From Gammaproteobacteria bacterium (GTDB lineage Bacteria; Pseudomonadota; Gammaproteobacteria; Arenicellales; JAANXG01), in NCBI GenBank assembly GCA_024639325.1, contig JAHEIO010000002.1, forward strand, positions 24,132 to 88,131: a stretch of DNA of 64,000 bases, in the 5' to 3' direction. This document shows, piece after piece, positions 14,765-42,298 of this stretch (positions are counted from its first letter, which is position 1; each line of letters begins with the position of its first letter). Made by a program: the position numbers and the translations under genes. Under the pieces are notes generated by a model. That model had not been told where the DNA came from, did no database searches, and saw only the letters and a list, made by a program, of their open reading frames with translations.

Positions 14765-14785
14765 CCCATTTAGAGTAGTGCGACT

Positions 14786-26979: not shown

Positions 26980-27969
26980 ATGGCCGTCGCTCTGATTACC
27001 GGCGGGACCGGGTTCATTGGAAGCCATCTCGTGGAAGCCCTGTTGGCAAGGGGTGAGAAAGTGAGATGCCTCGTCCGGTCTCCCGACAAATTGCGCTGGT
27101 TGCGCGGCAGCGATGTTGAGATCGTTACGGGAGACTGTCTGCACCCTCAGAGCCTCGACGCTGCCGTCAGGGGCGTGGACCATGTTTATCACGCCGCTGG
27201 CGTGCTTTGGAGCGCAAATGAACAGGCATATCTTCGCGGTAATGTTCAGGGGACACGCAATCTGATCGAGGCATGTGACCGGGCCAGTCCGGGCCTGGCG
27301 AAGTTTGTGCTGGTATCCAGTCAGGCAGCGGCGGGGCCCGGAACCGGGGGGGGGCCCAGAATAGAGTCTGATGCGCCCGCGCCAATCACGACCTATGGCA
27401 AAAGCAAACTGCTGGCGGAGCAGATCGTTTTGGACTACAAAACCCGGATTTCTGGCGTCGTTGTCAGGCCGTGTGCGGTTTATGGGCCACGCGACACGGC
27501 TTTTTTGGCCTATTTCCGGATAGTTCATCGAGGATTCCTGATAGAATTCGGCGGTGGCGAGGATCGTATCGTCAGTTTGTGCCACGTAAGCGACGTCGTC
27601 GGCGGGATAATCCAGGCGGCGCATGCCGTTTCCGCAGCCAGCGGATCGGTATATTTTCTGGCGGATCCGAAACCTTACCCTTGGCGTGAGGTTGAATCTA
27701 TAATAGAGCAGGCGATGGGCATCAGGGCAAAGCGGCTACGCATTCCGGTTTGGTTTTTGTACGGGCTGGGGATGCTGGGTCAAGGGTATGGCCGCGCCAC
27801 GGGAAAATCTGTTATGTTAAACAGGTCGAGAGTTGCTGAAATGACGGCGCGCCGATGGGACTGTGATGCCGGCAAGGCAAGACGTGAACTGAAGTTCGCG
27901 CCGGTAATGAATCTAAACGACGGCTTACGTGACGTGGTTCGTTGGTATAAACAAGAACAATGGCTATGA
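26980..27969 (+). CDS. NAD-dependent epimerase/dehydratase-family SDR (candidate keto-sphingoid/ceramide reductase)
   Basis: 329 aa with ITGGTGFIGSHL (GxxGxxG) and catalytic YGKSK (YxxxK). Its stop overlaps the start of the next gene (ATGA at 27966-27969). Confidence 0.75.
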   Translation: MAVALITGGTGFIGSHLVEALLARGEKVRCLVRSPDKLRWLRGSDVEIVTGDCLHPQSLDAAVRGVDHVYHAAGVLWSANEQAYLRGNVQGTRNLIEACDRASPGLAKFVLVSSQAAAGPGTGGGPRIESDAPAPITTYGKSKLLAEQIVLDYKTRISGVVVRPCAVYGPRDTAFLAYFRIVHRGFLIEFGGGEDRIVSLCHVSDVVGGIIQAAHAVSAASGSVYFLADPKPYPWREVESIIEQAMGIRAKRLRIPVWFLYGLGMLGQGYGRATGKSVMLNRSRVAEMTARRWDCDAGKARRELKFAPVMNLNDGLRDVVRWYKQEQWL

Positions 27970-29219
27970 CAGACCGGCTATACGCAAAACAGGAATTCAT
28001 CGAAGAAACACCAGAGATTGGCCAGTCCGACACCCGTCCGACCATTTTTGACAAGTGCCGGAAGTATACGCGTGCCCGTGAGGCGATGGCCGCTGGGGTT
28101 TATCCTTACTTTCACCGGATAGATTCCGCCCAGGAACCCGATGTGATCTGTGACGGGAAGCCGATGATCATGATGAGTTCCAATGACTATCTTGGACTGA
28201 CCAGCCATCCCAGGGTGAAGGAAGCGGCAATCGACGCGGTGCGCAAGTTCGGAACCGGGTGCGCCGGGTCCAGATTTCTCAACGGCACGCTGGCAATGCA
28301 CGAGGAGATGGAGACTAGACTGGCGACATTCCTTGGCAAGGAGGCGGCGGCGGTGTTTCCCACCGGATTCCAGGCCAACCTCGGAGCGATTTCTGCTCTG
28401 GTAGGAAAAAGCGAGTACGTCATCATCGATCGTATGAACCACGCCAGCATCTATGACGGCTGCAGGCTCTCCTACGGACAAATCAAAAAATACCAGCACA
28501 ACGACATGGAGAATCTTGAGCGGATCCTCAAAAGCGTCGACGGACGGGGTGCGCTTGTCGTTGTCGACGGCGTGTTCAGCATGGAAGGCGATATCGTGAA
28601 TCTGCCGGGCGTCGTGGAGCTGTGCAAACGTTATGGTGCCGGATTGATGGTCGATGATGCACACAGCATTGGCGTCCTCGGCAAGAACGGTTGCGGCACT
28701 GGTGAACACTTCAATATGGTCGATGAAATCGATCTGATCATGGTCACCTACAGCAAATCGTTGGCAACGATCGGAGGATGCATCGCAGCGAGCGAGGAGA
28801 TGATCCACTATCTTAGGCATCACGCCCGTTCTCTCATGTTTTCTGCCAGCCTGCCGCCGGCCCCGGTGGGCGCCGCGTTGATGGCACTCAATATCATCGA
28901 GGAGGAGCCCGAGCGGCGGGAGCGACTCTGGGACAACGCCAGCTACTTGAGAAATGGCTATCAAAACCTTGGCTTCGATACCGGTGTCAGTGAGACCCCT
29001 GTGGTCCCGGTGGTGGTGGGAGACGAGGAAAAAGTGCTGAAGATGTGGCGGATGTTGTTCGATGCGGGCGTATTCGCCAGTCCCGTCATGTTTCCCGGCG
29101 TGCCACCCGGGATGGCCCTGCTCCGAACGAGCTGCATGGCGACCCACACCGAAGATCACCTGGACAAGGTTCTGGAAACATTTGCCAAAGTCGGGCGTCA
29201 GCTTGATTTGATTTCCTGA
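27960..29219 (+). CDS. Alpha-oxoamine synthase, serine palmitoyltransferase-like (PLP-dependent)
   Basis: 419 aa. SNDYLGL, GSRFLNGT, NHASIYDGC, DDAHSIG, the PLP-lysine TYSKSLATIGG and RERLWDNA are collinear with Sphingomonas SPT (SHASIYDGC, TFSKSVGTVGG, RERLWSNA) as I recall it. The start is 27960 or 27966. Confidence 0.75.
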   Translation: MAMTDRLYAKQEFIEETPEIGQSDTRPTIFDKCRKYTRAREAMAAGVYPYFHRIDSAQEPDVICDGKPMIMMSSNDYLGLTSHPRVKEAAIDAVRKFGTGCAGSRFLNGTLAMHEEMETRLATFLGKEAAAVFPTGFQANLGAISALVGKSEYVIIDRMNHASIYDGCRLSYGQIKKYQHNDMENLERILKSVDGRGALVVVDGVFSMEGDIVNLPGVVELCKRYGAGLMVDDAHSIGVLGKNGCGTGEHFNMVDEIDLIMVTYSKSLATIGGCIAASEEMIHYLRHHARSLMFSASLPPAPVGAALMALNIIEEEPERRERLWDNASYLRNGYQNLGFDTGVSETPVVPVVVGDEEKVLKMWRMLFDAGVFASPVMFPGVPPGMALLRTSCMATHTEDHLDKVLETFAKVGRQLDLIS

Positions 29220-29333
29220 CCCGATCAGGCGCCGGACGCAGAATCTTTTCTCACCTGGACTTTCGCGAGAACGGGTCGCCTCGCCAATTACCCTGTATGA
29301 TGGCTTCTCGACTTCTTACCGAAATCCACCCTG

Positions 29334-30440
29334 ATGCAGGCTAATTTTATCCGCGCCGGTTTACTGTTTTTTCTAGCGACCATCGCGTTCTGCTGTGCGG
29401 CGGATGAGAACGCCGGCGCCACCGACTTTCGCCCCAGTCTGCTCGAGGACGAGTGGTACAGCGAAGGGTGGGATCAGATTTTCTATTTCGAAGACGGAAC
29501 ATTACTCGTTTCCCAGATAACGATATTGAACATCGGATTTGGCAGCCATCATGCCGGTGTATTCACCATGCTCGTGGCCCCTGGCGGCGGCAAGACGATC
29601 ATCAAGCAGAGCCGTTCGAACCGGGACTGGGAATTCTCCGAAAGTTCACTTGATTTGGAAATAGCGAAACACCGCTTGCGCGGCCAATCGCCGGTTTATC
29701 GTGTACTGATTCGTCAGAAATCGGATGAGGTGGATGTCACATTCAACTCTATTACCGCGGCCTGGCCCCTGGGTAGAACGCTGGAAATCGAAGAAGCTTA
29801 TCAGTATGTGAGCTTCTATGCGCCGCTGGCCGAAGCCGAAGGCCGCTACAAGCTGGGGGCGGGCGATGAGTCAGAAGGCTCGGAATGGAACAAGCTGCAG
29901 GGCGGCCGCGGTTTTGCCGTGCGCTATGTAAACTCGACCGGCCTGCACGACCTTATACGCAGTTCAACGCGGATCGTCGACCTGGAGCATTCCGCTGTTA
30001 GCCCCGTTATATACACATCCGTGGACGTCGATGGCGGCGTGCAGGTCCATCTTGCGCTGTTCCAGAACGGTCAATTGTTGCACGAAAGCGGAGATTTCGA
30101 TCTGCAAACAAAGGGCAGGATAGAGACCGCGGACAAGGACACGCGGAACATTCCTGATGGGTTTGCAGTCAATATCGAGGAGGATGAATTCGCTCTAACG
30201 GGAACCGTAGAAATTGAAAGGTTCCTTGCCCGTGTGGATCCCGTTGATTCATTGAAACCTTTTGTACGGACGATTGTAAAACTGTTGAATACGCCAATTC
30301 AGTATAGATATCTGGCAAAGTATGACCTGGACTATACGCAGGGCGGCCGAAAGAGCAGACTCCAGGGGCGGGCCTTGATGGATCATATGGTGCTTAGATA
30401 CCAGAGAAAACCCGAAAACGGCACAAATAACACGCGATAA
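29334..30440 (+). CDS. Secreted protein of unknown function (signal peptide)
   Basis: 368 aa with an N-terminal MQANFIRAGLLFFLATIAFCCAADE signal-like sequence and no recognised catalytic motif. It lies immediately upstream of the MMPL gene. Confidence 0.6.
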   Translation: MQANFIRAGLLFFLATIAFCCAADENAGATDFRPSLLEDEWYSEGWDQIFYFEDGTLLVSQITILNIGFGSHHAGVFTMLVAPGGGKTIIKQSRSNRDWEFSESSLDLEIAKHRLRGQSPVYRVLIRQKSDEVDVTFNSITAAWPLGRTLEIEEAYQYVSFYAPLAEAEGRYKLGAGDESEGSEWNKLQGGRGFAVRYVNSTGLHDLIRSSTRIVDLEHSAVSPVIYTSVDVDGGVQVHLALFQNGQLLHESGDFDLQTKGRIETADKDTRNIPDGFAVNIEEDEFALTGTVEIERFLARVDPVDSLKPFVRTIVKLLNTPIQYRYLAKYDLDYTQGGRKSRLQGRALMDHMVLRYQRKPENGTNNTR

Positions 30441-30450
30441 ATGCGGGTGG

Positions 30451-32961
30451 ATGGCTGAAGCAGGCGCGGCAACGGTTTTGGAAGCGGGCGCGGACGACCC
30501 GCCCAAACCTCGTATTCCCGAAAAGCACGTCACCTTCCTCGATCACTGGATTTCATTCCTGATCGCTGCCTACATTCCCTTTCTGCTGGTCGCCGGTGTG
30601 CTCAGTTACTTCAGTTTTGAGATCGCTAAAGGTCTCAAGCTGGATGCTAACATCACATCGCTGATGCCCGACGGCGTGCCCAGTGTCGACAATCTTAAAA
30701 CCGTCATCGATAAAACCGGCGGGTACAACAACGCGATGATACTTGTGGAATCACCGGATCCGGAAATCGCGTTTCGCTATCTCGATGATCTGGGCGCAAG
30801 GATCAGGCAAGAGGACTGGGTTACCAGCGCCGAGTACTCAGAGAACACTGCGATATTCGAACGCAACAAGCTGATTTATGTCGATCAGGAGGATTTGCAG
30901 GAAATGGACCGGCGCCTGGCTGAGCGCATGGAATTCGAGAAAAAGAACCTCGACTTCAGTGTCGATGGGATCCCGGTGGAAGTCACTATCCGTGATGCAC
31001 CCAGAACCCGTCCGGCACTCGAGTTCGAGGACATCGAGTCGAAGTACCGGCGGAAGCAGGCGGGCAGCAGTACCACCAAGTTGTTCACCAGCGAATCTAA
31101 GGATCTGACTATCCTGGTTGTGTTTCCCCAAGGAGGCACCACCAATGTTAAGTACTCCAGAAAAATTATCCGGGATCTCGAGGCGATCATCGCAGAGTCC
31201 GACGCTCAGTCGTACCATCCGGAACTGCGCGTAACGATTGGTGGAAGGATCGCAAATCGCGTTGCCAGCTTCGACTCCATCATGAGCGATGTCAAAGATA
31301 GCGGCTTGTGGTCGATTCTCGCCATATTCCTGGTGGTCGTGCTGTTTTATCGCCGTCTCATGGCAATCTTCTACATCGGGTTGCCGCTCAGCGTCGGATT
31401 TCTGCTCACATTTGCATTGACCAAACTGGTACTGGGCGGGCTCAATCTGGTCACGGTTTTTCTGGTGCTAATTCTGTTCGGACTGGGCATCGACTTCGGA
31501 ATCCACAATCTGGCCCGGTATGACGAAGTTAGAAAGAGCGGCGCCAATATGAGGACCGCGCTCAGAACGATCTACGCGAAAACCGGCCAAGCCTCGCTGC
31601 TGGCGGGGATCACCACGACATGCGGTTTTTATTCCCTGATGTTGACCAACTTCAAGGCGTTCTCGGAGTTTGGCTTCATCGCGGGCAGCGGTATTGTGCT
31701 GACCTTGTTCACGATGTACGTGTTTTTTCCGGCGCTGATGATTTTCGCCGAGAAAATCAGATTGTATCGACCGCCTCGATTCAGTCAGATTCAAAAAAAA
31801 TTAAAGACGCGGCCGTTTCCGGGAGTGGGGCCGATCATGGGCCTTGGAACGGTTTTTGTCTTCGCCGCGTTCTATCTGGCGCCAAATATACAGTTCGAGG
31901 ACGATTTCGGAAAAATAAAGACGAAAGTGCCCGAAATTTCCGAGACCAACGACAAGATAAGGAAAGTGTTTCCCCTGCGCACCGACAAAGCCATGGTGTT
32001 CGTCGAGCAGCTTGAAGACGTGGCGCCGCTGGTGGATGAACTCGAAAAAATCAGGCTCTCCAGGAGCGGTGACGACGTTACCATCGAGAAAGTCAAGTCG
32101 ATCTACAGCGTGGTTCCAAAGTCGGAGGATCAGTACGAGCGTTTGGAGGCCATCGACAGCATTCAACAGAAACTGTTGGAAGCGAGGCGATTGCTCAATG
32201 ATTTCAGTACCGAGAACGATCCGCGAAAACAGGACATCGAAGAAGCACTTCAATATTTCGGCGTGTCGCCGCTGACCGCTCAAGACCTGCCGACCGCGGT
32301 CCAGCGGATGTATACGGGATCGCCGGAGTCGGGCGGATATCTCGTCTATATCTACAACAGCAAAGGCATGTCCAAGCTAGAGAATGCCGAAGCTTTTGTG
32401 AATGACATCCGCGAAATCGAGGCCAATGGTAAAAAGTTCTACCCCGCGACCGAGGCGATGATATTCGTCGACATGATCAACCTGATGAAGCAGGATGCGG
32501 CGCGTGCGATTGGTGTCGTGTTGGCCTCGGTTTTCATCGTTCTTCTGGTTGCGCTCAGGCGACTGAAGCACACCATCGTGGTTATGGTTCCCGTTGTAAT
32601 TGGTATGCTATGGATGCTAGGCCTGATGGTGGCCCTGGACATTCGGCTGAACATTTTCAATATGGTAGTACTGCCCACGGTGCTCGGCATAGGGATCGAT
32701 AACGGCATCCATATTTTTCATCGCTACCAGGAAGAAGGCGGCCGTGTTTTCCACGTTGTCAGAACCACGGGCGGCGCCGCTTTCCTGACCACGCTGACGA
32801 CTATGCTTGGTTTTGCCGGGACGTTGACCGCGTCGAATCAGGGTCTGCAGTCGCTTGGCCTGGTGGCGTGCCTGGGATTGACCTGCTGCATGGTCAGTTC
32901 ACTTACGGTTTTTCCCGCTATCCTGCAGTGGACGGATACTGTCCGTAACGCCAGATCATGA
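30451..32961 (+). CDS. MMPL/RND-superfamily lipid exporter
   Basis: 836 aa with two repeats of a periplasmic loop plus a 5-6 TM bundle (e.g. LILFGLGIDFGIH and VLGIGIDNGIHIFHR), the typical MMPL/HpnN-like architecture. Confidence 0.8.
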   Translation: MAEAGAATVLEAGADDPPKPRIPEKHVTFLDHWISFLIAAYIPFLLVAGVLSYFSFEIAKGLKLDANITSLMPDGVPSVDNLKTVIDKTGGYNNAMILVESPDPEIAFRYLDDLGARIRQEDWVTSAEYSENTAIFERNKLIYVDQEDLQEMDRRLAERMEFEKKNLDFSVDGIPVEVTIRDAPRTRPALEFEDIESKYRRKQAGSSTTKLFTSESKDLTILVVFPQGGTTNVKYSRKIIRDLEAIIAESDAQSYHPELRVTIGGRIANRVASFDSIMSDVKDSGLWSILAIFLVVVLFYRRLMAIFYIGLPLSVGFLLTFALTKLVLGGLNLVTVFLVLILFGLGIDFGIHNLARYDEVRKSGANMRTALRTIYAKTGQASLLAGITTTCGFYSLMLTNFKAFSEFGFIAGSGIVLTLFTMYVFFPALMIFAEKIRLYRPPRFSQIQKKLKTRPFPGVGPIMGLGTVFVFAAFYLAPNIQFEDDFGKIKTKVPEISETNDKIRKVFPLRTDKAMVFVEQLEDVAPLVDELEKIRLSRSGDDVTIEKVKSIYSVVPKSEDQYERLEAIDSIQQKLLEARRLLNDFSTENDPRKQDIEEALQYFGVSPLTAQDLPTAVQRMYTGSPESGGYLVYIYNSKGMSKLENAEAFVNDIREIEANGKKFYPATEAMIFVDMINLMKQDAARAIGVVLASVFIVLLVALRRLKHTIVVMVPVVIGMLWMLGLMVALDIRLNIFNMVVLPTVLGIGIDNGIHIFHRYQEEGGRVFHVVRTTGGAAFLTTLTTMLGFAGTLTASNQGLQSLGLVACLGLTCCMVSSLTVFPAILQWTDTVRNARS

Positions 32962-33765
32962 CGCGGTTTCGAAATCCCGCAGCGGGCGATTGCTGAACTT
33001 GTCCCACGCCGTCTCTTTGTCTGTTTCTCTGGCCAGAATGCTGCCGTCTGGGCGGCGCTCCAGGGTCGGATCGATATAGTATCGGCCGAGCTTTCGGCCG
33101 TCTGCCGGTTCGAACGTATCGCCCAGATATCCCTTTGCGTTCAGATTCAGGATCGTCGCGGGTTCGCCGTCCGCGCCAAACCAGTGCGCGTTGTCCGTAT
33201 ACTCGGTGGTTTTGAAATATTCGTAAGGTGCCAGGATCCGGTCACTGGTTTGCCTCACGGCGAGGGTTCGGTCGTCGATGCGCCGGATCCGCTCGTACTG
33301 CCGAACGTGGGCCTTGCCCTTCAACACGACCTGTGTCGAGACGAGGTTGTGGTGAGCATGCGGCGGCTGACAGGAGTTGGGGGCGACCCACCAGAGCTGC
33401 AGCCGCCAGAGCTTATCAGCGCCGGATCGCGTGATCAGTTTCACCCTTGGGCGGCCATCAGCGAGATCGATCATTCCCTCGTAGATGTCGCGATTGATGT
33501 CGATTTCCTGATAGTACTTGCCAAGCTCCTCTGAAAAGTGCTCGGCGGTGATCTGCTTCGCCTCCAGTCGATTGATCAACTCAACGACCTTTCGGTACAA
33601 CGCACTTTCCGCCGTCGCATCGTTGTCGATGTTCAATAGCTGAAGCAGCCTGGGAACGGCGAAAGGGGAGGCCGCCACCCCGATTCCAATTGCCGCAGAC
33701 AACAGTATGAAGTCACGGCGCTTTACACGATCCATTGCCGGGACGTGATGCACTTGTTCGGTCAT
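32956..33765 (-). CDS. Tat-exported hypothetical protein (possibly cupin-like)
   Basis: Twin-arginine motif MDRVKRRDFILLSAAIGIGVAA and the His-rich segment PPHAHHNLVSTQVVLKG. The start is uncertain: GTG 33801, ATG 33765 or ATG 33735. Confidence 0.55.
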   Translation of the reverse strand: MTEQVHHVPAMDRVKRRDFILLSAAIGIGVAASPFAVPRLLQLLNIDNDATAESALYRKVVELINRLEAKQITAEHFSEELGKYYQEIDINRDIYEGMIDLADGRPRVKLITRSGADKLWRLQLWWVAPNSCQPPHAHHNLVSTQVVLKGKAHVRQYERIRRIDDRTLAVRQTSDRILAPYEYFKTTEYTDNAHWFGADGEPATILNLNAKGYLGDTFEPADGRKLGRYYIDPTLERRPDGSILARETDKETAWDKFSNRPLRDFETAS

Positions 33766-33797
33766 AACGGGACTCTGGAATTCATATGAGCAGTATA

Positions 33798-35033
33798 TCA
33801 CCGCTCATGATTGACGACCGTAGAAACGTGTTTTCTCGAGATTGCCATGGCCATGGCAAAGTGGATACTGATGAACAATATTCCAGCCATGCTAATCCAG
33901 AACAACAGGTGATATCCAAATGGTGTGCCCGTGATCATGGGCGTAATTGACAGCAGAAACACGACGAATGAAAAAGAATCCCGTTTGCCGAGGATCTTCA
34001 GGCTGTCCAGCGCCTTGAACAGCCAGTTGGTCGGCGCTTCGCCCATTTTCTGGCCCAGATCCTGATGCACGGCCGTCATCGTCCCGGGCTGCCGGGTGTC
34101 CACGAGATACCAGGTCATGCCGCCAACCAGCACCAGCATCAACAGCACCATGCTGATGCCGAGCGGAAGCACCCATCCCGCAATCGCGTATTCGTGAGCC
34201 AGGGTGTAGCGTTCATATCCGATGATCAGGCAGACGGCGAACACCACGTATACCAGGTTGTCGCCCACCGTGTCGATCCAGGCGCCCAGCGGAGATGCGC
34301 GGAATGTGCTTCTGGCCAGCTCCCCATCGACCCGATCCAATGCCGCGCACAGTTGGAACAGCGTGCCGCCGATGGCCACGTCGGTCAGCCTGCCCCGGGA
34401 GACGAACCATGCGCTGATGAACCCCACGATGGTTGCCACCAGCGTCATCTGGTTGGGCGTGACGCCGAATTCGCAAAGCACTCGGCTGATAGGAATCGAG
34501 ATCCGCGAGTTCAGGTTGCGTGAAATCGGGCCGGATGTTGATTTGGTTACGTTGGCAAAAATGGCGTCTTTGGCGGCCTTGATATCTTGATGCTCGATCA
34601 CGGGGACGACATAGGCTCCCGTCGGCGAGTCCGGGCGCCAGAGGGGTTCCGGTGCCGAAGACCCGGTTCGTTCCATGCGTGGCGCCGCCGGCACGAATGC
34701 GGGATGTTCACATTCGGAAAGCAATTGCCATACCGGGTTTCCAACGACCACGTTGGCATCGACATGGATATCGGTTTTTTCAATCCGGGTTTGGGAAGTT
34801 TCCCAGCGAATGCCCCTGCCTTTCAGCCGCGGATCATCGCCACATCGGGATCGCGCCGTATCCGCATAGGATCCCGCAACCGAGATTTCGCCGGCGCCCG
34901 CCTGCATGGCGCCCAGGATCAATCGCGTCAGCACCATCACCCCGGCCACCTTCAGAAATGCCGGACTTTCTTCAGGCTCCACATCGGGGAGGTGGATGGT
35001 GACGGTGAACGCTTCCGGTTCAGCTCGATTCAT
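33798..35033 (-). CDS. CDP-alcohol phosphatidyltransferase with degenerate nucleotidyltransferase-like N-terminal domain
   Basis: 411 aa with an intact signature DRVDGELARSTFRASPLGAWIDTVGD (DGxxARx8Gx3Dx3D). The linker TKSTSGPISRNLNSRISIPISR resembles IPCT-DIPPS fusions. The N-domain lacks the GxGxR loop. Confidence 0.8.
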   Translation of the reverse strand: MNRAEPEAFTVTIHLPDVEPEESPAFLKVAGVMVLTRLILGAMQAGAGEISVAGSYADTARSRCGDDPRLKGRGIRWETSQTRIEKTDIHVDANVVVGNPVWQLLSECEHPAFVPAAPRMERTGSSAPEPLWRPDSPTGAYVVPVIEHQDIKAAKDAIFANVTKSTSGPISRNLNSRISIPISRVLCEFGVTPNQMTLVATIVGFISAWFVSRGRLTDVAIGGTLFQLCAALDRVDGELARSTFRASPLGAWIDTVGDNLVYVVFAVCLIIGYERYTLAHEYAIAGWVLPLGISMVLLMLVLVGGMTWYLVDTRQPGTMTAVHQDLGQKMGEAPTNWLFKALDSLKILGKRDSFSFVVFLLSITPMITGTPFGYHLLFWISMAGILFISIHFAMAMAISRKHVSTVVNHER

Positions 35034-36237
35034 ATTGATGCTTCTCGCCGCTCATGGGCAGGTATATGAACCTCATGAGATGGAATGCCAGAGTCAAAAC
35101 GTACCAGACGGTTATCAGTATCAATCCGATCTCCGCATCGCCGAGGATCAGCGCGATGAGCATGCACAACAGGAATGGATTCCGGCGTGCAATGAAGATC
35201 CGGACGGAATAATCGAGCCTGGTATAGTCGTGAAGTTCGTAACCGTACAACCGCTTGTACAGACCGGTGGCGATCTTGTCCGCAAGAAATGACGCTATCA
35301 GTAATGCGTGGATCTGCGCGATCTGATTGGACATATCGAGCAAGGCCCCGCCGCTCAGCGACCATCCGAGGCCGATGTACCATGCCAGCAGATACACGAA
35401 ATCGGAGACATGGTCCAGCAGATCCCCCGACCTGCTGGTCCTCATGGTTACCCTCGCCAGCTTGCCGTCTACGGTATCCAGAAACGCCATGGCAAACCCC
35501 ATGATCGTGGCGACCCAGTAATGACCGGTGAAAAACGGAACTATGGCCCCGAAGGACAAAAGCATGCTGAGCAGGGTGACCTGATTGGGTGTGATCGCAG
35601 TAGGGCTGATCATCCTTACCACCCACCGGGCCGGCAGGTAAAAAACATACTTGGTTATAAAATCGGTGGCGCCTTTGTAAACGGCTGCGAAAGTGATTTT
35701 TTCAGCAAGACGCAAATCTTCGCCGGAGTTCACGGCTATGACGAACGCGCTGACGCGTTTGCGGGTCGCCTGTATGTAGGTGCTGATGTCGGATTCGTGA
35801 ACCAGTTCTGCGGCGTTATCCAAATACCCTGCATGCGTTGTCGCGCCGACAAACCGATTGTCCATGTCGCAGCGGGTGTCCCGACCGGTTTCCTTGAGAT
35901 ACTCCAGAATACGGTTGTCGACCACGACGCCGGCATCGATGACCAGAGCGCGCCCATTGAATGCGGGAATTGAGCGTTCCGTCGAACCCTGGTCTATCTC
36001 CACCGTATCTACCCGTATCTTCGTCCATTTTGAAAAATCCCGCCGGACGAAGTCCTGCAACTGCAGGGGGGAACCACATATGACGCTAGCCTGATCGATG
36101 CCGATCTGAGAAAGCTGGCGCAGCAGCCGCTCCAACAGCGTCATGCCCCACAGGTTTGCCATGGCAAATCGGCCCGTGGCGATCACGTAGGCCCTGGAAA
36201 CACCTCTCGGAATTTCTGAGTTTGATTTGATTATCAT
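35020..36237 (-). CDS. CDP-alcohol phosphatidyltransferase with degenerate nucleotidyltransferase-like N-terminal domain (tandem paralog)
   Basis: Signature DTVDGKLARVTMRTSRSGDLLDHVSD. The start was set at ATG 36237 (MIIKSN...), which forms an ATGA overlap with the upstream flippase stop. The ORF-track extension to 36891 overlaps the flippase gene in another frame. Confidence 0.75.
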   Translation of the reverse strand: MIIKSNSEIPRGVSRAYVIATGRFAMANLWGMTLLERLLRQLSQIGIDQASVICGSPLQLQDFVRRDFSKWTKIRVDTVEIDQGSTERSIPAFNGRALVIDAGVVVDNRILEYLKETGRDTRCDMDNRFVGATTHAGYLDNAAELVHESDISTYIQATRKRVSAFVIAVNSGEDLRLAEKITFAAVYKGATDFITKYVFYLPARWVVRMISPTAITPNQVTLLSMLLSFGAIVPFFTGHYWVATIMGFAMAFLDTVDGKLARVTMRTSRSGDLLDHVSDFVYLLAWYIGLGWSLSGGALLDMSNQIAQIHALLIASFLADKIATGLYKRLYGYELHDYTRLDYSVRIFIARRNPFLLCMLIALILGDAEIGLILITVWYVLTLAFHLMRFIYLPMSGEKHQYESS

Positions 36238-37493
36238 TGGGCTGCCAGGATGCGCCGAACCACCGAACGGCCAAATAGATAAAGCAGTACGAAGTTTACC
36301 AACTGGCCCAGAGGGGCGCCAGTTTGGCCGATCCAGTAAATCATGATGACCGTCGTCGCCAGGCCGGCGATGCCCGCCATGCGCTCCCATATCAACGGCG
36401 CATCTGCCCCGCCTTTCACGACTATTACCGACAACTGGTATTCCGCGAGGCCGTTGAAAATGAACGCGATTGCCAAAATGGCCATTATCGGCCAGGCATC
36501 CGCGTAGGCGTCGCCACCGATCAACCGGACGAGCCACGGGCTGAGGCAAGCCGTTAACAACGGCAGCACGATCATGATCGAATAGTAGAGGCGCCGGTCT
36601 CGGCGGTAGCTCACTGCGTCGAGACCCGCGGCCAGCCTGACCGACAGCGGTCCGGCGAGTATCCTGGCGAGCTGGCTGAGTACCTGTGCCCCCTGCCGCG
36701 CGATGTGGTAACTGGCCATTTGAGCGAGCGGCAGCATGACGGCAATTACGACCCGGTCCAACTGGCGGAAGCCGCGACGGTAGAGCACCCGCTGATAGTC
36801 GGGAAAACAAGCCCTGAGTCGTTTTATCGCGCCGGCCGGGGACAGGGCTTGTAAACTGATGCGCATCAAGATGCTGCGAAGACTCCAGCACGCCAGCAAG
36901 AAGGTAATGAGTACGCCGATCATCAATCCTGCGAACAGGTAATCGACGCCCAGGGCCAGATACAGCAGGAAGGCAAACAGTTTTTCACTCGTTGCTGATC
37001 CCGAGTCGAGTAAAGAATCCAGCCAATACTGCTGCCGGGCGAAAAAAACCGGCGTCAGGATGTACTGGAAGTTTTTCAGCAGAACATGCGTGAAGACGAA
37101 CGGTAGGGCCATCTTAACGTTGATTTCAGGCGCGGCGGCCTGCAGTTCGTCCAGGAATAAATAGCCAAGAACCAGCAGCAGCGCAACAAATCCAATAGTT
37201 GCAGACAGCCGGATCAGCGTCGCCGGCCCGATGACCTTCTCCACGGCTTCTTCGCTCAGGCCCTGATCGATGAGTGGTGTGGCTTCCCGTATGACCTGAA
37301 AATGCAGGCCAAAGTCCAGCAACACCTTGGTCAGCATTACGATTGCGGCATGAACTCCGATCAGGCCCAGCACGGGTTTCGGCAGCTCGCGCGCGAAGTA
37401 AGCCAGAAACAGCAGCGACACCACCGCAACGGCGGCCCGGCTGATTACGATCTCGATAGCGGCGTGCAGTAGGCTTTTATGTTTGGCCTGCAT
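36234..37493 (-). CDS. MOP-superfamily (Wzx-like) polysaccharide/lipid flippase
   Basis: 419 aa, highly hydrophobic with about 12 predicted TM segments, and a general resemblance to polysaccharide biosynthesis (Wzx) transporters. Confidence 0.55.
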   Translation of the reverse strand: MQAKHKSLLHAAIEIVISRAAVAVVSLLFLAYFARELPKPVLGLIGVHAAIVMLTKVLLDFGLHFQVIREATPLIDQGLSEEAVEKVIGPATLIRLSATIGFVALLLVLGYLFLDELQAAAPEINVKMALPFVFTHVLLKNFQYILTPVFFARQQYWLDSLLDSGSATSEKLFAFLLYLALGVDYLFAGLMIGVLITFLLACWSLRSILMRISLQALSPAGAIKRLRACFPDYQRVLYRRGFRQLDRVVIAVMLPLAQMASYHIARQGAQVLSQLARILAGPLSVRLAAGLDAVSYRRDRRLYYSIMIVLPLLTACLSPWLVRLIGGDAYADAWPIMAILAIAFIFNGLAEYQLSVIVVKGGADAPLIWERMAGIAGLATTVIMIYWIGQTGAPLGQLVNFVLLYLFGRSVVRRILAAQ

Positions 37494-37565
37494 GGATCTA
37501 ACACACCCGACGGTCGCTGTGCCGGTCCGGATTCCGGCACCGTCCGAGTACAGAAAAGGTATCGC

Positions 37566-38351
37566 CTAGGAAGCGACCAGCGACAAATTTGAATTCGCCA
37601 GTTTTGAATTCGATTGGCGGACCCAGTTCGAAACCATGGTTTCGGCTTGTGTCCTGTCGACGGGAAAATCCACCTCACACCAGTCCAGTCCCTCGATCGA
37701 GCGAACCTCTACCCGGTTTGTCTGGGCGATGGCACCAATCGCGGACAGATACCAGATGTCAAGCGCGCCATCCGACCTCATCAGCTCGTTCAGCGTGTCG
37801 ACGAAAATACCGGGTCCTTTCCCGTGGAAATAGATCATTCCGATGGACTCGCCGCCGATCCGGTCTGTTGTCAGGTTTTTTCCGATCTCCAGAAGAGTGC
37901 TTCCATCGAGGTGGACCTTCATGTCGTCCTCATCGTAGTGGTCTTTCTTGTCGATGGCCAGAGTAATTGGTGCGGCGGGTTCGTTGAGCAGCCGCCTCAG
38001 TATGTGATAGTGGAAGATTGTGTCACCGTTGATCAACACGAAGTCCGCATCCATGACCCGTCGTGCCATCCAGCAGCTCACAAGATTGTCGGCTACCGCA
38101 TAGAACGGGTTGAATATAGCGTTGATCGTGCATCCTTTATAGACCAGCCTCAACTCGGCAATTTCGTCCTGCAGCACCCGCGCCTTGAATCCGGTGATTA
38201 CGTATATCTCGTTTATGCCGCACTTCGTGAGTTGAGATACCTGCCAGTCCAGCATGCTCCTGCCGGACAGCGCGATCGTCGATTTGGGCCGATCCGACGT
38301 CAACGGCAGCAGACGCTTGCCCTGACCGGCGCCTAGAATAATAGCTTTCAA
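37566..38351 (-). CDS. Nucleotidyltransferase (sugar/alcohol-phosphate cytidylyl- or nucleotidylyl-transferase)
   Basis: 261 aa with N-terminal MKAIILGAGQGKRLLPLTSDRPKSTIAL (GxGxR + PK motif) of the NTP_transferase fold. Confidence 0.8.
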   Translation of the reverse strand: MKAIILGAGQGKRLLPLTSDRPKSTIALSGRSMLDWQVSQLTKCGINEIYVITGFKARVLQDEIAELRLVYKGCTINAIFNPFYAVADNLVSCWMARRVMDADFVLINGDTIFHYHILRRLLNEPAAPITLAIDKKDHYDEDDMKVHLDGSTLLEIGKNLTTDRIGGESIGMIYFHGKGPGIFVDTLNELMRSDGALDIWYLSAIGAIAQTNRVEVRSIEGLDWCEVDFPVDRTQAETMVSNWVRQSNSKLANSNLSLVAS

Positions 38352-38487
38352 TATTCGTCCCCGAAATAGTAATAGTTATACGCCGTGCTTTATAGCAATT
38401 CACTCTGAAAGTTGCAAAGCGACGGCGCCGGTTCGCGCGGTATGACAAGCGATTGGCGTCAAAAGGCAATAAATTCGAGAATCCGGG

Positions 38488-39528
38488 TCATACCGGCCGG
38501 CTCGCCTGCCTGAGTTCGGTGTAAAGCTCATCCAGCGCGTCGCAAACATCGTCATCGCTGGTTCTGGATATCAATTCGTCATTGATGTGAAAGGATTTGT
38601 AGGTGAGGTTCATGCTGCCCAGGAATGCGCACCGGAATCGATGTTGTTGGGGACCAAGGGGCTCGACGAGCACGAACTTGCAATGCATGGGCAACAGCTC
38701 GGGATGGACGTAACGAAACGCACGAATACCGCTGTCAGATAGTTTGTTTACCGTCTTTTGCGGAAATCTCCGCTCACTGTCGTGGCCGATGACTTCGATA
38801 TGGCTTCCCGAGGCAGCGAGTCGCCGCAACAGGTTCAAGGCCCCTGCATCAGAGATATGGGACACCGCAACTCTGATTTTCAGTTCATTTCCGGGTATGA
38901 GCCCGCGGCGCAGGTAGTCGATCAACAGGTTATCGCGTCGCGAGGGAAGGAACTGCAGGTCGATGTTCCCAAAACTTTCCGGCGGTGATGAAAACCGCCG
39001 TCGGGGGTGGCTGAACAGGGTGGCGAGGTGCTGGCGAACATAGCGGTAGAGGAGAGCGTTTCCGTAAATCCGCAGTAGCAGATTGTATCCCGAATCCTGG
39101 TCGCCTATGACATCGAATACTTGCTGTTCGGCGACGTCGTTTCCGGAAGGATTGTAGGTGCCAAACAGGCATATATTGGATCGGCTTCCGGCCTTGGATG
39201 CCAGAAACAGCTTTAAATGCATCCGACGTTTGAGCAGGTTTGCAGGATGGCGAAAGGCCAGGGTCGACGAATCGAAGCCATGATCCTTCAGAAATTTCTC
39301 TGCTGCCAGGTTGCCGGGTTTATAGTAGGTGTTTCCGGACAGCAGCAGTTTCACTTTTACGCCCCGTCCATGTGCCTCGACCAGTGCCTTACAGAACCTC
39401 ATATTGCGCAGGTAGTAGGTTGCAATGAAAATTTCTTCACCTGAGGGTACGGAGTGGATCAGTTTCAACAGTGACTCGAGCAGTAGTGAGGGCGTGGTGG
39501 GGCGATTGACGAGCAGTGCGATGTCCAC
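38488..39528 (-). CDS. Phospholipase D superfamily protein (two HKD-like motifs)
   Basis: 346 aa with MHLKLFL...GTYNPS and MHCKFVLVE...GSMNLT, i.e. two HxK...G(S/T)xN motifs. The acidic position is non-canonical in the first motif. Confidence 0.7.
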   Translation of the reverse strand: MDIALLVNRPTTPSLLLESLLKLIHSVPSGEEIFIATYYLRNMRFCKALVEAHGRGVKVKLLLSGNTYYKPGNLAAEKFLKDHGFDSSTLAFRHPANLLKRRMHLKLFLASKAGSRSNICLFGTYNPSGNDVAEQQVFDVIGDQDSGYNLLLRIYGNALLYRYVRQHLATLFSHPRRRFSSPPESFGNIDLQFLPSRRDNLLIDYLRRGLIPGNELKIRVAVSHISDAGALNLLRRLAASGSHIEVIGHDSERRFPQKTVNKLSDSGIRAFRYVHPELLPMHCKFVLVEPLGPQQHRFRCAFLGSMNLTYKSFHINDELISRTSDDDVCDALDELYTELRQASRPV

Positions 39529-39597
39529 TGGTGCTGTATGCGGATTAGTCCAATTAGTACCACGCTCGGTACAGGGGTAGGCTACGCAATATGCGGT

Positions 39598-40629
39598 CTA
39601 CACGCCGGCAGGCGGGACCACCGGAAGTCCGGGATCGTTGGTGTCTTGTTTTCGCCAGCCATCGAGAGCGCTCATCTGGTGTACGCAACTCAGCGTGCAG
39701 TATGGCGCGCATTCTTTTCGGGTGTCGAACTCCCTCTCGATATCCCGTTGCGTGTACTGAGTTATCGGTATGCCCGGATAACCCCGGCGTTGGGAACACA
39801 GGTGCACGTTGCCATCTTCACAAATATACAGATACCTGGACCCGGCCCGGCACTTCCAGGAGTTTGGCTTTCCGCGCATCAGATTCTTTTGAAACAGCTT
39901 GTAGTTGACACTGTGTGATATGGAGTGAGAGAGCCCGGTGACTCGTTTGTACGTGTCGAACTGCAGCTCGCTGAAAGGTTTTATCTTCCCGGTATCGTCG
40001 TGTAGTACGCCCACGCTGTGGAAAAAACCGTACTTCCGAGCCGTTTTTGCGACGGCGAATGCATCTTCGGTTCTTTCGTCGCTTATGCCAAGAACGGAGT
40101 TGACATTGACTTTGAACTTGGCGTGCATCGACAGCAACTCTAGTTTGCTTTCGATGGCGTTGAGGCTTTTTTGGGAGACGTCATCCGGCTCCAGGTTGTC
40201 AATGCTGATCTGCATCTCCTGGAGGCCACAGTCATTCAATTCGCGGATACGTCTTTCGTTCAACCGGTACCCATTGGTGATCATGGTCGCGATCATGCCC
40301 TTGCCTCTTATCAGGCGGATGACCCTGGTCAGGTGGGGATTCATGAGGGGTTCTCCCCCGGTGCATGTAATCGCCGCCGTGTTGAGTCTGTAGAGTGCTT
40401 CCACCCGTTCCGCCAGTAGTTCGGCCGGTACCGGGGGCGAAAAATCATCGTATTCGTTGCAATATCCGCAGCTCAGATTGCATCTGCGAGTGACCACCAT
40501 CTGCGCGAGCAGCGGATTGTAGCGCGAGGACAATGCTTTCCATAAAAAACGCCCGATACCCGGGCCCATGCCGTTTCCGATTGATTCGTACGTCATTGAC
40601 ATGTTTGAATTGCGCTGTTTAGCCCCCAT
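39598..40629 (-). CDS. Radical SAM enzyme with C-terminal Cys-rich (SPASM-like) region
   Basis: 343 aa with the CNLSCGYC (CxxxCxxC) cluster motif, the GGEP SAM motif, and a C-terminal WKCRAG...YICEDGNVHLC...CAPYCTLSC region. The start is uncertain among N-terminal Mets. Confidence 0.75.
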   Translation of the reverse strand: MGAKQRNSNMSMTYESIGNGMGPGIGRFLWKALSSRYNPLLAQMVVTRRCNLSCGYCNEYDDFSPPVPAELLAERVEALYRLNTAAITCTGGEPLMNPHLTRVIRLIRGKGMIATMITNGYRLNERRIRELNDCGLQEMQISIDNLEPDDVSQKSLNAIESKLELLSMHAKFKVNVNSVLGISDERTEDAFAVAKTARKYGFFHSVGVLHDDTGKIKPFSELQFDTYKRVTGLSHSISHSVNYKLFQKNLMRGKPNSWKCRAGSRYLYICEDGNVHLCSQRRGYPGIPITQYTQRDIEREFDTRKECAPYCTLSCVHQMSALDGWRKQDTNDPGLPVVPPAGV

Positions 40630-40750
40630 TTATCGAATGAGTAGCGGTTTGACTTATATGCGGCTTCCGTTACCGAAACGCTCGATGTGAGTCGTTTCGG
40701 ATGTGGGGACGCAATATTACCTCATCTGGTCATCGGTTTGATGCATTGTT

Positions 40751-41416
40751 TTGAATAAGCGATTTATTGTTCGCTGCGCGCTGGTTGCGTTGCTGGCGGG
40801 AGACGGGCCGTTCGCCGTTGCCGAGGACCTTTGCGGTGAAATTCCTCCCGCGGCATTCAAGTCGCTGGAAGGCACGGCGTTCGAAAAGGTCAGGATCCAG
40901 GCGGATGAGATAGAATTTCCCGGCCGTAATGTCGTTATCCTGCGCGGTTACACCCAGTTGTTCAGGGGTGGACACCGGGTCAACTCGGATGCACTGGTTT
41001 ACTACAAGGCTAGGAACACGGTGGAGGCGAGGGGCTCCGTTACACTGCAGACCCGGAAAGGGGACGTCGTGAAGACGGACGTTCTGGCCTACGACATAAA
41101 AACCGGCATGGCCGTATCCGGCCCGGCGGAGTTTTCGATAGCAAACCGCCGGAGCGAGGTTCTTGGTTCGGCGGATAGTACCGTCAATGCCTTTGGAACA
41201 GCGGCGCGGGTCATGTTCGAGTCCGCCGATATCATGCTGCTGGAGGAAGCGGATGTTACGAGTTGTCTCGACGGTGAAAAAGACATTACTTTCCATGCCG
41301 TAAAGCTGCGGGTCGATCTAAACGAAGGCGTGCGCACCGGGACCCGTGTGAAGATCAGGATCGAAAATCCCGGTAAACACCGAAAACTGAGTGAACTCCA
41401 GAGGCTTATAGAGTGA
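40751..41416 (+). CDS. LptD N-terminal (OstA/beta-jellyroll) domain protein; truncated relative to full-length LptD
   Basis: 221 aa with a signal peptide. ...VRIQADEIEF..NVVILRGYTQLFRGGHRVNSDALVYY...EARGSV... and DVTSCLDGEKDITFHAVKLRVDLNEGV..TRVKI parallel E. coli LptD residues up to ...[26 protein letters not shown]..ARFKV. The ORF then stops where the LptD beta-barrel would begin. Confidence 0.65.
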   Translation: MNKRFIVRCALVALLAGDGPFAVAEDLCGEIPPAAFKSLEGTAFEKVRIQADEIEFPGRNVVILRGYTQLFRGGHRVNSDALVYYKARNTVEARGSVTLQTRKGDVVKTDVLAYDIKTGMAVSGPAEFSIANRRSEVLGSADSTVNAFGTAARVMFESADIMLLEEADVTSCLDGEKDITFHAVKLRVDLNEGVRTGTRVKIRIENPGKHRKLSELQRLIE

Positions 41417-41467
41417 GTAATATCTCGCGCAGGCACACCGCCTCAGCGAGATCCGGTCAGCGTTCGC

Positions 41468-42298
41468 TCAGGTCGCAGTTCGATCTGCCGTTCCGTCGGC
41501 ATAGTTCAACAAGGCATCCCGAAGATTTCTGTTGGTGCGACGTTGAGTTCTTCGCAACCAGATCAGCAGGCCGTTCAGCAGTATTATCTCGTAGAGAAAA
41601 AAAAGAATCGGTATTTTCGCCATACAGGATAGCGACAAGGCGATTGTCCTTTTATTGGAGCTCAACAATGTCCACAGACGGACGCTGCGCAGTGAGTGCG
41701 CCTGGTATGTTTTGCCGAATGTCCCCCGATCCGGGTGGCCACGCAGTTCTCTTTCGGCACTGATCAACTCATTGTCCGGCTCGGAAACCAGGTGCTGCAA
41801 TCTGACATACACACAATGACCCGCACGGAGCAGCGTGGCAGCGACCCCTGATCTGAAATCCAGTTCTATCGGATCTAGTGTTTGTGAGCATTTTCCGGTG
41901 TTACCATGCACCCAGCAGTCGTAATTATCCCGGTGAAATTCCAGGGCACCGGCCTGCAGTGCATGGCTCAGGCCCGCTGCAATTGCCAACAACCATATCG
42001 ACGTCCCGTATTGGGGTTGAAGCGCCAGAGCCAGGGCAACATAGACCATGCCGAAGCCCAGGTGGTCGCACAGGCCGTCGATAACTTTTCCAAACTCCGA
42101 TGTCGTTCCGGTCAATCGCGCCAGTTGCCCATCTGCGCCGTCGAGGACGTGCCACCCCGTCATGAAGACCAATCCCAGCATGGACATCGTGATGCTCTGG
42201 TAGTTATAGAAGCACCATGAAGCGATTAGTGCACTTGCCATGCCGAGTAGCGAAACAGTGTTCGGACTCCAGCCCCATAGCGCAAAAAGGCGGGTCAA
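41468..42298 (-). CDS. CDP-alcohol phosphatidyltransferase (stand-alone)
   Basis: 276 aa with the signature DGADGQLARLTGTTSEFGKVIDGLCD and multiple TM segments. Confidence 0.8.
   Translation of the reverse strand: MTRLFALWGWSPNTVSLLGMASALIASWCFYNYQSITMSMLGLVFMTGWHVLDGADGQLARLTGTTSEFGKVIDGLCDHLGFGMVYVALALALQPQYGTSIWLLAIAAGLSHALQAGALEFHRDNYDCWVHGNTGKCSQTLDPIELDFRSGVAATLLRAGHCVYVRLQHLVSEPDNELISAERELRGHPDRGTFGKTYQAHSLRSVRLWTLLSSNKRTIALSLSCMAKIPILFFLYEIILLNGLLIWLRRTQRRTNRNLRDALLNYADGTADRTAT

Follow-up and report, generated by a model that had tools for sequence, protein, structure and literature searches.

Which product is specified by the genes lying between the housekeeping genes rnd and mltA in an uncultured, marine gammaproteobacterium of the Arenicellales? 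The locus is part of a stretch of 64,000 nucleotides (contig JAHEIO010000002.1 of assembly GCA_024639325.1, positions 24,132 to 88,131), here termed the window, and a sequence-only reading of its translated open reading frames (ORFs) had interpreted 13 consecutive genes as one accessory cluster for synthesis, head-group decoration and export of a lipid. On balance, the comparisons described below favour a sphingoid lipid that would be formed by the locus, exported via a pump of the MMPL family, a lipocalin and an Lpt-like protein, and furnished with a variable, cytidine-activated head group. The lipid-related accessory island with its serine palmitoyltransferase (SPT)-like alpha-oxoamine synthase (AOS), cytidylyltransferase and phosphotransferases was retained from the earlier interpretation, and export to the outer membrane is plausible in view of the MMPL pump, the Svf1-like lipocalin and the Lpt-type protein; the idea of a single unit was given up. 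Judged from gene order, the island is best described as three modules: (i) the genes for a short-chain dehydrogenase/reductase (SDR), AOS, lipocalin and MMPL pump, (ii) the radical SAM, Lpt-like and CPT_C genes, and (iii) an insert of six genes. The genes are arranged as follows:

25878-26975: RNase D (rnd), flanking gene (profile match)
26980-27969, + strand: extended SDR (Pfam Epimerase 2e-40)
27960-29219, + strand: SPT-like AOS (profile and structure-sequence matches)
29334-30440, + strand: exported Svf1-like tandem lipocalin, predicted, 368 aa (family-level Pfam matches, AF2 model)
30451-32961, + strand: MMPL/HAE3-type RND exporter, HpnN/BstA-like (Pfam MMPL 4e-39)
32956-33801, - strand: Tat-signal protein (RRDFIL twin-arginine motif)
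33798-35033, - strand: CPT_A, CDP-alcohol phosphotransferase of the DIPPS/AF2299 class (Pfam CDP-OH_P_transf 1e-9)
35020-36240, - strand: CPT_B, second DIPPS-class phosphotransferase (Pfam CDP-OH_P_transf 4e-12)
36234-37493, - strand: polytopic membrane protein, probably MOP/Wzx-like (weak signals)
37566-38351, - strand: LicC/IPCT-like cytidylyltransferase (Pfam NTP_transferase 9e-12)
38488-39528, - strand: soluble enzyme of the phospholipase D (PLD) superfamily with two HxK motifs (Pfam PLDc_2 4e-23, two stretches)
39598-40629, - strand: radical SAM enzyme (Pfam Radical_SAM 8e-19)
40751-41416, + strand: exported Lpt-type protein, putative beta-jellyroll, LptA/LptC/LptD_N-like (family-level Pfam matches)
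41468-42358 (listed ORF start 42298), - strand: CPT_C, short CDP-alcohol phosphotransferase (Pfam CDP-OH_P_transf 8e-13)
42443-43630: MltA, flanking gene (profile match)

All 13 ORFs between rnd and mltA were recovered at these coordinates in an ORF check of the window, with junctions as described before (overlaps of 10, 4, 14 and 7 nt; gaps of 10-144 nt). The catalytic signatures reported earlier were likewise all located by regular-expression search of the translations, the HKD-like motif lacking its Asp, and profile-HMM annotation of each ORF (Pfam, NCBIfam) yielded the SDR, AOS, MMPL pump, three CDP-alcohol phosphotransferases, NTP transferase, PLD and radical SAM enzyme.

The evidence for a sphingoid product is centred on the SDR-AOS pair, two genes with an overlap of 10 nt between SDR stop and AOS start, indicating translational coupling. 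Among NCBIfam models the AOS scored highest with SPT of the CFB type (528 bits; bioF 405, Kbl 395), and its best solved relative is SPT of Sphingobacterium multivorum (3a2b/8guh; 419 bits, 48 % identity), as compared to 314 bits for BioF/KBL, 277 for Kbl and 275 for cysteate acyltransferase, with SPT of Sphingomonas ranging within 275-314 bits. The pyridoxal phosphate-binding Lys lies in a TYSKS motif at residue 263, and the HASI and DDAHS motifs align with the S. multivorum enzyme. The earlier assignment as SPT-like, and neither BioF nor Kbl, was thus borne out, SPT models and structures leading by more than 100 bits. Use of L-serine and a long-chain acyl thioester, as by SPT, is predicted, with good support from homology. 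An exact look-up of the window AOS returned no match; its nearest relatives are proteins of metagenome-assembled genomes (MAGs).

The coupled SDR contains the motifs YGKSK and GGTGFIG and matches 3Beta_HSD (5e-29) besides Epimerase; its best NCBIfam matches, HpnA and OleD (3-oxo-lipid reductase), are both far under their cut-offs. It is a candidate for the 3-keto reductase of a long-chain base or oxo-ceramide, i.e., for a CerR/KDSR-like role. CerR is described as NDUFA9-like in the published Caulobacter pathway, and the window SDR is likened to it by description.

SDR-AOS pairs are present in Arenicellales as well as Nitrospirota loci. The Nitrospirota AOS is 64 % identical to that of the window and belongs to SDR-AOS-GNAT triads: on contigs L011 (9020-12441) and L012 (9045-12321), SDR, AOS and a GNAT-like protein of 371-375 aa follow each other in tight succession. 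By analogy, these triads probably represent CerR-Spt-bCerS ceramide operons; we know of no report of sphingolipids for this phylum. Neither the window nor the Arenicellales loci encode a homologue of the Nitrospirota GNAT, and the third position is occupied there by the exported 368-aa protein; the latter was considered as a bCerS-type GNAT and rejected for lack of similarity to the Nitrospirota protein. The lipid anchor would be a free long-chain base, or a ceramide if an unlinked N-acyltransferase exists.

The exported 368-aa protein has a signal-like hydrophobic N-terminal helix and by itself no Pfam match. Its family is small (148 representatives in an exhaustive HMMER search) and its profile matched no PDB sequence, while Pfam Svf1_C was matched by 15 of 51 family members (best 8e-20) and the N-terminal lipocalin domain of Svf1 by two of the 51. 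The AF2 model (pLDDT 91.6) consists of the signal-like helix followed by two beta-barrels and retrieved by Foldseek Fsa2/CghA, AttH (2ich), kievitone hydratase and 25-phosphosteroid lyase (TM 0.5-0.6), double-lipocalin structures which bind polyketides, isoprenoids and steroids. In yeast Svf1, ceramide is bound between the two lipocalin domains (PMC10038888). At the level of the family and its predicted fold, the protein thus qualifies as an Svf1-like tandem lipocalin, which by analogy is a candidate periplasmic carrier of a sphingoid lipid or ceramide.

The adjacent MMPL protein (about 12 hydrophobic segments; Pfam Sterol-sensing 4e-7 in addition to MMPL) adjoins SPT in every Arenicellales-like locus examined. 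NCBIfam HpnN models scored 299 bits (cut-off 752) and 146 bits (cut-off 1100), and BstA was matched with 3e-51.

These data bear on the alternative that AOS and SDR serve a pathway other than sphingolipid formation, namely biotin synthesis (BioF), threonine catabolism (Kbl), formation of a CqsA-type autoinducer or a capnine-type sulfonolipid, or elaboration of a hopanoid side-chain. Such a role could draw on AOS scores under the NCBIfam SPT cut-offs, on the proximity of the bioF score to its cut-off (405 versus 426 bits), on the 275 bits of cysteate acyltransferase, and on HpnA, HpnN and HpnH being among the best named matches of the SDR, MMPL and radical SAM proteins. It is highly improbable, considering that SPT exceeds BioF, Kbl, CqsA and cysteate acyltransferase by the above margin, that Hpn scores are 2-6 fold under their cut-offs, that neither squalene-hopene cyclase nor any other hopanoid (hpn) gene is present in the window and no bio genes are nearby, and that the lipocalin belongs to the ceramide-binding Svf1 family. 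The BioF, Kbl, CqsA and Hpn readings were rejected on scores and gene context.

Is the remainder of the island linked to this core? The island proteins have their closest relatives in MAGs that bear the label Arenicellales or uncultured Gammaproteobacteria. The same genes are found on one 13-kb contig (L005) with about 96 % amino-acid identity; an apparent break in its radical SAM gene (9931-10062) is a run of 130 N, i.e., a scaffold gap or mask, and no frameshift. In loci L001/L006, L002, L007 and L008, rnd is followed by SDR, AOS, exported protein and MMPL. Ahead of mltA, where the contig reaches it, these loci encode the radical SAM enzyme with 67-76 % identity, along with the Lpt-like protein and either one long phosphotransferase or two. 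The six genes from Tat protein to PLD are present in the window and L005 only; elsewhere among these relatives CPT_B has only distant paralogues (24-31 % identity) among the long phosphotransferases of other loci. Other genomes have different genes in the slot between MMPL and radical SAM, namely those for different long phosphotransferases, a MOP flippase, an LpxO-like hydroxylase or an additional radical SAM/SPASM enzyme, and L006 has a fatty-acid desaturase gene just beyond the Lpt-like gene. Hence, the claim that the 13 genes are conserved as one unit did not hold; synteny reveals a conserved core and a hypervariable slot, the six genes being restricted to near-identical strains. From the variability of this slot it follows that head-group chemistry probably differs between strains.

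Two unrelated neighbours would be the alternative: a sphingolipid core (26980-32961) next to a separate surface-decoration or polymer module (32956-42358), the latter producing a lipid-linked poly- or oligo-(phospho-alcohol), teichoic-acid-like, or a decoration of lipopolysaccharide or capsule, flipped by the MOP flippase. This possibility, which we regard as rather unlikely, agrees with the confinement of the insert to this strain lineage and with the separability of the modules in L008 and L003. Against it stands the finding that, in five independent MAG lineages, the rnd-mltA interval with the SPT core also contains the genes for a long phosphotransferase, the radical SAM enzyme and the Lpt-like protein. 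The adjoining accessory genes argue in the same direction, since those in the relatives' slots encode lipid modifiers (LpxO-like hydroxylase, fatty-acid desaturase) besides MOP flippases.

Within the second module, the radical SAM protein carries a CNLSCGYC motif and five C-terminal Cys that are invariant in 14 sequences. The radical SAM core of the previous "radical SAM/SPASM" label was thereby confirmed, and the SPASM part was dropped, as Pfam did not detect this domain despite the five Cys. The family is widespread and highly conserved (62-76 % identity across Gamma- and Alphaproteobacteria, 62-69 % between these two classes) and is without curated family membership. Folds nearest to the AF2 model (pLDDT 75) are those of BlsE, viperin, SkfB, MoaA, DesII and AbmM. 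SkfB is a peptide maturase; the other five act on nucleotides or nucleotide-linked sugars.

The neighbouring protein, previously read as a stand-alone LptD N-terminal domain, has a signal-like N-terminus and by itself yields sub-threshold matches only (OstA_2 E 0.018, LptD_N E 0.037). Probable kinship to Lpt proteins emerged at the family level, using the profiles PF03968, PF06835 and PF13100: LptD_N was matched by 4 of 5 members (best 1.3e-4), LptC by 3 of 5 (1.1e-6) and OstA_2 by 2 of 5 (2.2e-4), and the family profile retrieved a single PDB sequence, LptH, with E 0.09. The gene is on the + strand. Near-identical strains aside, six loci (including L022) likewise have it next to the radical SAM gene.

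CPT_C is 36-37 % identical to phosphotransferases encoded together with inositol-1-phosphate synthase (MIPS) and NTP transferase (L013, L023) and near SPT (L018). Its homology to the Lichenicola phosphotransferase reaches position 42358, some 20 codons ahead of the TTG listed as start, and the frame is open for 48 codons upstream of this TTG (42298-42442, - strand) with no ATG, GTG or TTG; taken together, this suggests a non-canonical start codon.

Related radical SAM genes occur in a recurrent setting. In Lichenicola (L013, 2567-15888), LptF and LptG abut an operon for a CDP-alcohol phosphotransferase, NTP transferase, MIPS and Sur1-like glycosyltransferase, followed by GT4, radical SAM, MOP flippase and GT4; this locus resembles one for a glycosyl-inositol-phospho-lipid with its own LptFG, by analogy to LptF2G2 of Caulobacter. 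A Chromatiales locus (L014) contains GT4, PIG-L, MOP and Sur1-like glycosyltransferase genes, and L016 is organized as L013, plus MIPS and NTP transferase. In L018, the surroundings include PIG-L, a CPT_C-type gene and, 2.7 kb away, an SPT; L023 combines a ClsB-like PLD, GT4, NTP transferase, MIPS, a CPT_C-type gene, a fatty acyl-AMP ligase (FAAL) and an SDR. MIPS adjoins the CPT_C-type genes in L013 and L023; in these two loci and in L016 it also lies near the radical SAM gene. As read from the gene families, these contexts apparently share the theme of head groups for envelope lipids or glycolipids, which are often inositol-based, combined with trafficking to the outer membrane.

With regard to two independent neighbours, the MOP flippases and glycosyltransferases around the radical SAM relatives in L013, L014 and L016 would fit a decoration or polymer module, while neither a glycosyltransferase nor a priming enzyme acting on undecaprenyl phosphate is encoded in the window. 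L018 ties relatives of the radical SAM enzyme and CPT_C to SPT, and L023 to FAAL and SDR. The L018 AOS-family protein is 39 % and the L023 SDR-family protein 30 % identical to the window proteins; the former link was kept because NCBIfam confirms the L018 protein as bona fide SPT (677 bits, cut-off 500), and the latter consists of the FAAL and SDR context alone.

The insert constituting the third module starts with a Tat-signal protein, whose RRDFILLSAAIGIGVAA motif is followed by a hydrophobic stretch as expected for Tat export (signal region KRRDFILLSAAIGIGVAASPFAV). Pfam PCO_ADO and Cupin_1 matched it below threshold (E 0.04-0.18), and PDB yielded no match.

The DxxDGxxARx8Gx3Dx3D motif is intact in all three phosphotransferases (39.2, 46-47 and 49.5 bits with PF01066; cut-off 22). 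CPT_A is most similar to the solved IPCT-DIPPS (4mnd, 7e-15) and AF2299 (4o6m, 3e-14), as is CPT_B, and this likeness includes the juxtamembrane region. Membership of the DIPPS/AF2299 class, which uses soluble CDP-alcohols, is thus supported by sequence comparison. The bifunctional IPCT/DIPPS model NF041135 scored 96 and 54 bits (cut-off 580), and CPT_A and CPT_B, like every long phosphotransferase of the relatives, lack the GxGxR loop at the expected N-terminal position, so that the N-terminal nucleotidyltransferase-like domains of CPT_A and CPT_B are degenerate. As regards gene calling, a mechanical ORF of 623 aa (35020-36891, - strand) is a spurious extension of CPT_B by 217 codons past its true start (ATG at 36240). 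It runs into the MOP-like gene, which is read in a different frame, and automatic annotation could miscall it.

The cytidylyltransferase matched the NCBIfam IPCT domain (1e-17, residues 1-241) with an intact GQGKR loop; its best PDB match is LicC (1jyk, 9e-11), and a PntC-type enzyme (6pd1) matched too, which supports its prediction as a LicC/IPCT-like alcohol-phosphate or phosphonate cytidylyltransferase. Inositol was not assigned as head group, because identity to the MIPS-linked NTP transferases amounts to 24-27 % only.

The polytopic membrane protein, earlier called a MOP flippase, has at least 7 hydrophobic segments. Signals for the MOP superfamily are weak and co-linear: Polysacc_synt with E 1.5e-3 (18.5 bits, cut-off 28.2; residues 15-276), TuaB with 2.8e-5 (residues 8-70), and an hhalign comparison with five MOP flippases with E 0.002 and 14 % probability (residues 239-378). 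A BLAST comparison with the MOP genes present in L007 and L096 showed no similarity.

The PLD protein retains H104/K106 and H282/K284 in the motifs HLKLFLAS and HCKFVLVE, the motif Asp being replaced by Ser and Glu. Its family is very rare (49 relatives among 5.8 billion proteins), and the enzyme is a candidate head-group transphosphatidylase. An orthologue with 48 % identity is encoded in a MAG of the Spirochaetota (L096) between two long phosphotransferases, where a full-length CPT_B orthologue (39 % identity, E 3e-104) is located beside it. This locus (8568-19158) comprises three long CDP-alcohol phosphotransferases, PLD, a MOP flippase, a CyTase-PepM fusion, phosphonopyruvate decarboxylase and an Fe-type alcohol dehydrogenase (Fe-ADH); its gene logic is that of the Fom1-type route to CMP-2-hydroxyethylphosphonate (PMC6697681), making it a candidate pathway for placing 2-hydroxyethylphosphonate on a membrane or surface acceptor. 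Recurrence of CPT_B and PLD together with a Fom1-like CyTase-PepM indicates that these two enzymes operate with small head groups in cytidylyl-activated form. With three phosphotransferases, a MOP flippase and phosphonate genes in the company of the pair, and with SPT missing, L096 is also in line with a decoration module independent of the sphingolipid core.

The kinship of the head-group enzymes to IPCT and DIPPS raises a further alternative, according to which cytidylyltransferase and DIPPS-like enzymes form a soluble phosphodiester osmolyte (of the di-inositol-phosphate, glycero-phospho-inositol or diglycerol-phosphate type) and no lipid head group. For CPT_A, CPT_B and the NTP transferase, the top matches among solved structures and in NCBIfam do belong to this osmolyte pathway, and the host is marine. 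This explanation is highly improbable, however, given the degenerate N-terminal cytidylyltransferase domains of CPT_A and CPT_B, the lack of MIPS nearby, the setting among MMPL, lipocalin, Lpt-like, PLD, Tat-exported and polytopic membrane proteins, and the association of the orthologous pair in L096 with phosphonate tailoring, a cell-surface process (PMC6697681).

Returning to the sphingoid lipid with a variable head group, the following course of events can be proposed. The cytoplasmic SPT-like enzyme would condense serine with an acyl thioester, a step well supported by homology, and reduction of the 3-keto group by the coupled SDR would lead to a sphingoid base, or to dihydroceramide if an unlinked N-acyltransferase exists. 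According to its family and gene position, the HpnN-like MMPL protein would take the lipid out of the inner membrane and pass it to the Svf1-like lipocalin and/or the Lpt-type jellyroll protein, toward the outer membrane. With CTP, the LicC/IPCT-like enzyme would convert a small alcohol phosphate to its activated form; remodelling of the activated head group may be the task of the radical SAM enzyme, the nearest folds of which mostly act on nucleotide-linked substrates; and CPT_A, CPT_B and CPT_C would attach phospho-alcohol, either as a single unit or as several. Through the action of PLD, glycerolipid and sphingolipid may swap head groups, with an outcome analogous to that of inositol-phosphoceramide (IPC) synthase and of the HAD step proposed for Bacteroides (PMC9246714), and the MOP-like protein may flip the product. 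That modules 1 and 3 act on one lipid is the weakest link of this proposal.

Several observations weigh against the proposal. With respect to the core, the AOS remains under every NCBIfam SPT cut-off (NF047600, 528/640; NF047599, 399/500; NF047603, 329/670), and no bCerS-type GNAT, acyl carrier protein (ACP) or acyl-ACP synthetase is encoded in the 64-kb window. With respect to linkage, L003 and L004 contain SDR, AOS and MMPL only, 7 kb of unrelated genes lie between MMPL and the phosphotransferase and radical SAM genes in L008, the six-gene insert is absent from all relatives examined except the near-identical strains, and L096 with its CPT_B/PLD pair has no SPT within 10 kb. More remote radical SAM relatives (48-53 % identity) reside beside LolA/LolCDE-like genes, and one close relative stands alone. 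The MOP assignment is weaker than previously claimed. Finally, neither MIPS, pepM, ppd nor an alcohol kinase is present in the window; a search of the window for Fe-ADH was negative as well, and MIPS is also without homologue in the Arenicellales loci.

The remote radical SAM relatives are found in L067, L071, L073, L092 and other soil-metagenome loci (at about position 10000) within a conserved block of a MacB/LolCDE-like ABC transporter, a 120-aa protein, a LolA-like protein and radical SAM, with genes for pyruvate kinase and a methyltransferase of the PEMT-like type coming next. In the window, 6 kb downstream of the island, lies a gene for a Sel1-repeat Ser/Thr protein kinase (48528-51176, - strand); it has a full-length homologue (30 % identity) in L022 (5752-8352), adjoining Lpt-like and radical SAM genes, and a partial one in L037 (2387-4093), beside a radical SAM gene. 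Elsewhere in the window, an ORF at 58265-60100 (- strand) combines a regulator of the TetR/BetI type with a ring-hydroxylating oxygenase of the Rieske type and may represent two genes. Together with a DAO+GCV_T dehydrogenase upstream of the island (11297-13744, + strand), it suggests catabolism of glycine-betaine and dimethylglycine. GC and GC3 values do not distinguish the island from its flanks and give no clear signal of foreign DNA, promoter and terminator scans of the island performed no better than on shuffled sequences, and Rfam and tRNA scans of the window detected no riboswitch or other Rfam family near the island; the sole RNA gene detected, tRNA-Arg(CCG) at 19994-20070 (+ strand), is located outside of it.

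The component families as such and bacterial sphingolipid synthesis are already known. We believe the following to be new: (i) the SPT-lipocalin-MMPL-Lpt-like arrangement, (ii) the occurrence, together with an SPT core, of phosphotransferases of the DIPPS class, a rare PLD and a radical SAM enzyme whose family is widespread and uncharacterised, and (iii) the variable head-group slot. The earlier statement that this gene set has no described pathway agrees with the searched literature library, in which no paper on it was found. As a tentative possibility, one may speculate on a new periplasmic sphingolipid route (MMPL to Svf1-type lipocalin and LptA/LptC-like jellyroll) coupled to a strain-variable cassette that would add new phospho-alcohol or phosphono head groups via cytidylyl-activated, radical SAM-remodelled donors. 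If true, the locus would be to sphingolipid head groups what hypervariable loci are to the O-antigen. Apart from this, the island connects three uncharacterised families, i.e., the very widespread radical SAM enzymes, the very rare PLD and the DIPPS-class phosphotransferases with dead N-domains, with envelope-lipid head-group chemistry. The gene sets differing between strains suggest undescribed sphingolipid or phospholipid head groups in marine bacteria, which is relevant to work on lipid biomarkers.

Among known systems with a solved structure, none is closer to CPT_A and CPT_B than archaeal/Thermotoga IPCT-DIPPS and AF2299 (4mnd, 4o6m), a kinship that extends to the N-terminal domain of nucleotidyltransferase fold. 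The island differs by N-domains without the GxGxR loop, by a separate cytidylyltransferase and by an envelope-lipid rather than an osmolyte context. Phosphonate activation of the Fom1/PntC type (PMC6697681) shares the logic of cytidylyl activation and subsequent transfer, the L096 pair being located with CyTase-PepM, phosphonopyruvate decarboxylase (Ppd) and Fe-ADH; the window contains no genes for C-P bond formation and has a stand-alone LicC-like enzyme instead. The HpnN (hopanoid) and BstA/B/C (sterol) shuttles correspond in combining an HAE3/MMPL pump with a soluble periplasmic lipid-binding partner. In the island, scores are far under the equivalog cut-offs, the partner is predicted as an Svf1-type double lipocalin and the cargo would be a sphingoid lipid.

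For Bacteroides vulgatus and Prevotella, a putative, unconfirmed "alternative" inositol-lipid cluster of the Kennedy type comprises MIPS, NTP transferase, a CDP-alcohol phosphatidyltransferase and a HAD hydrolase (PMC9246714). Common to both is the occurrence of NTP transferase and CDP-alcohol phosphotransferase with sphingolipid formation, which for the island is a prediction, and the proposed sequence of CDP-alcohol synthesis and transfer to ceramide. Unlike this cluster, the island lacks MIPS and HAD hydrolase and contains three phosphotransferases (two of the DIPPS class with degenerate N-domains), PLD and radical SAM.

Transfer of sphingolipids from the inner membrane of Gram-negative bacteria to the outer one is an acknowledged open question, for which the island sets three testable transport candidates beside SPT: the MMPL pump, the Svf1-like lipocalin and the Lpt-type jellyroll. 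In Myxococcus xanthus, mmpL is located directly downstream of spt and was hypothesised to encode a sphingolipid exporter (10.64898/2026.04.12.717747). The island shares the MMPL exporter beside spt, as compared by description and not by sequence, and differs in having the Svf1-like lipocalin gene between the two, followed by Lpt-type and head-group genes. For Caulobacter, the same preprint reports that Lpt paralogues carry sphingolipids, with the periplasmic and outer-membrane components described as unknown and no LptA/LptD duplicates in sphingolipid loci (10.64898/2026.04.12.717747). The sphingolipid locus of Caulobacter crescentus (Spt, ACP, bCerS, CerR, LptF2/G2/C2, Cpg) resembles the island in placing SPT beside an extended-SDR reductase, in encoding an Lpt paralogue (a putative one in the island) within the lipid locus and in providing anionic phospho head groups bound for the outer membrane, as predicted for the island product. 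In contrast to it, the island is devoid of bCerS, ACP, acyl-ACP synthetase and LptF/G paralogues, and has a soluble LptA/C/D_N-like jellyroll, a predicted export system of MMPL and lipocalin, and CDP-alcohol phosphotransferases in place of the ceramide kinase/Cpg type.

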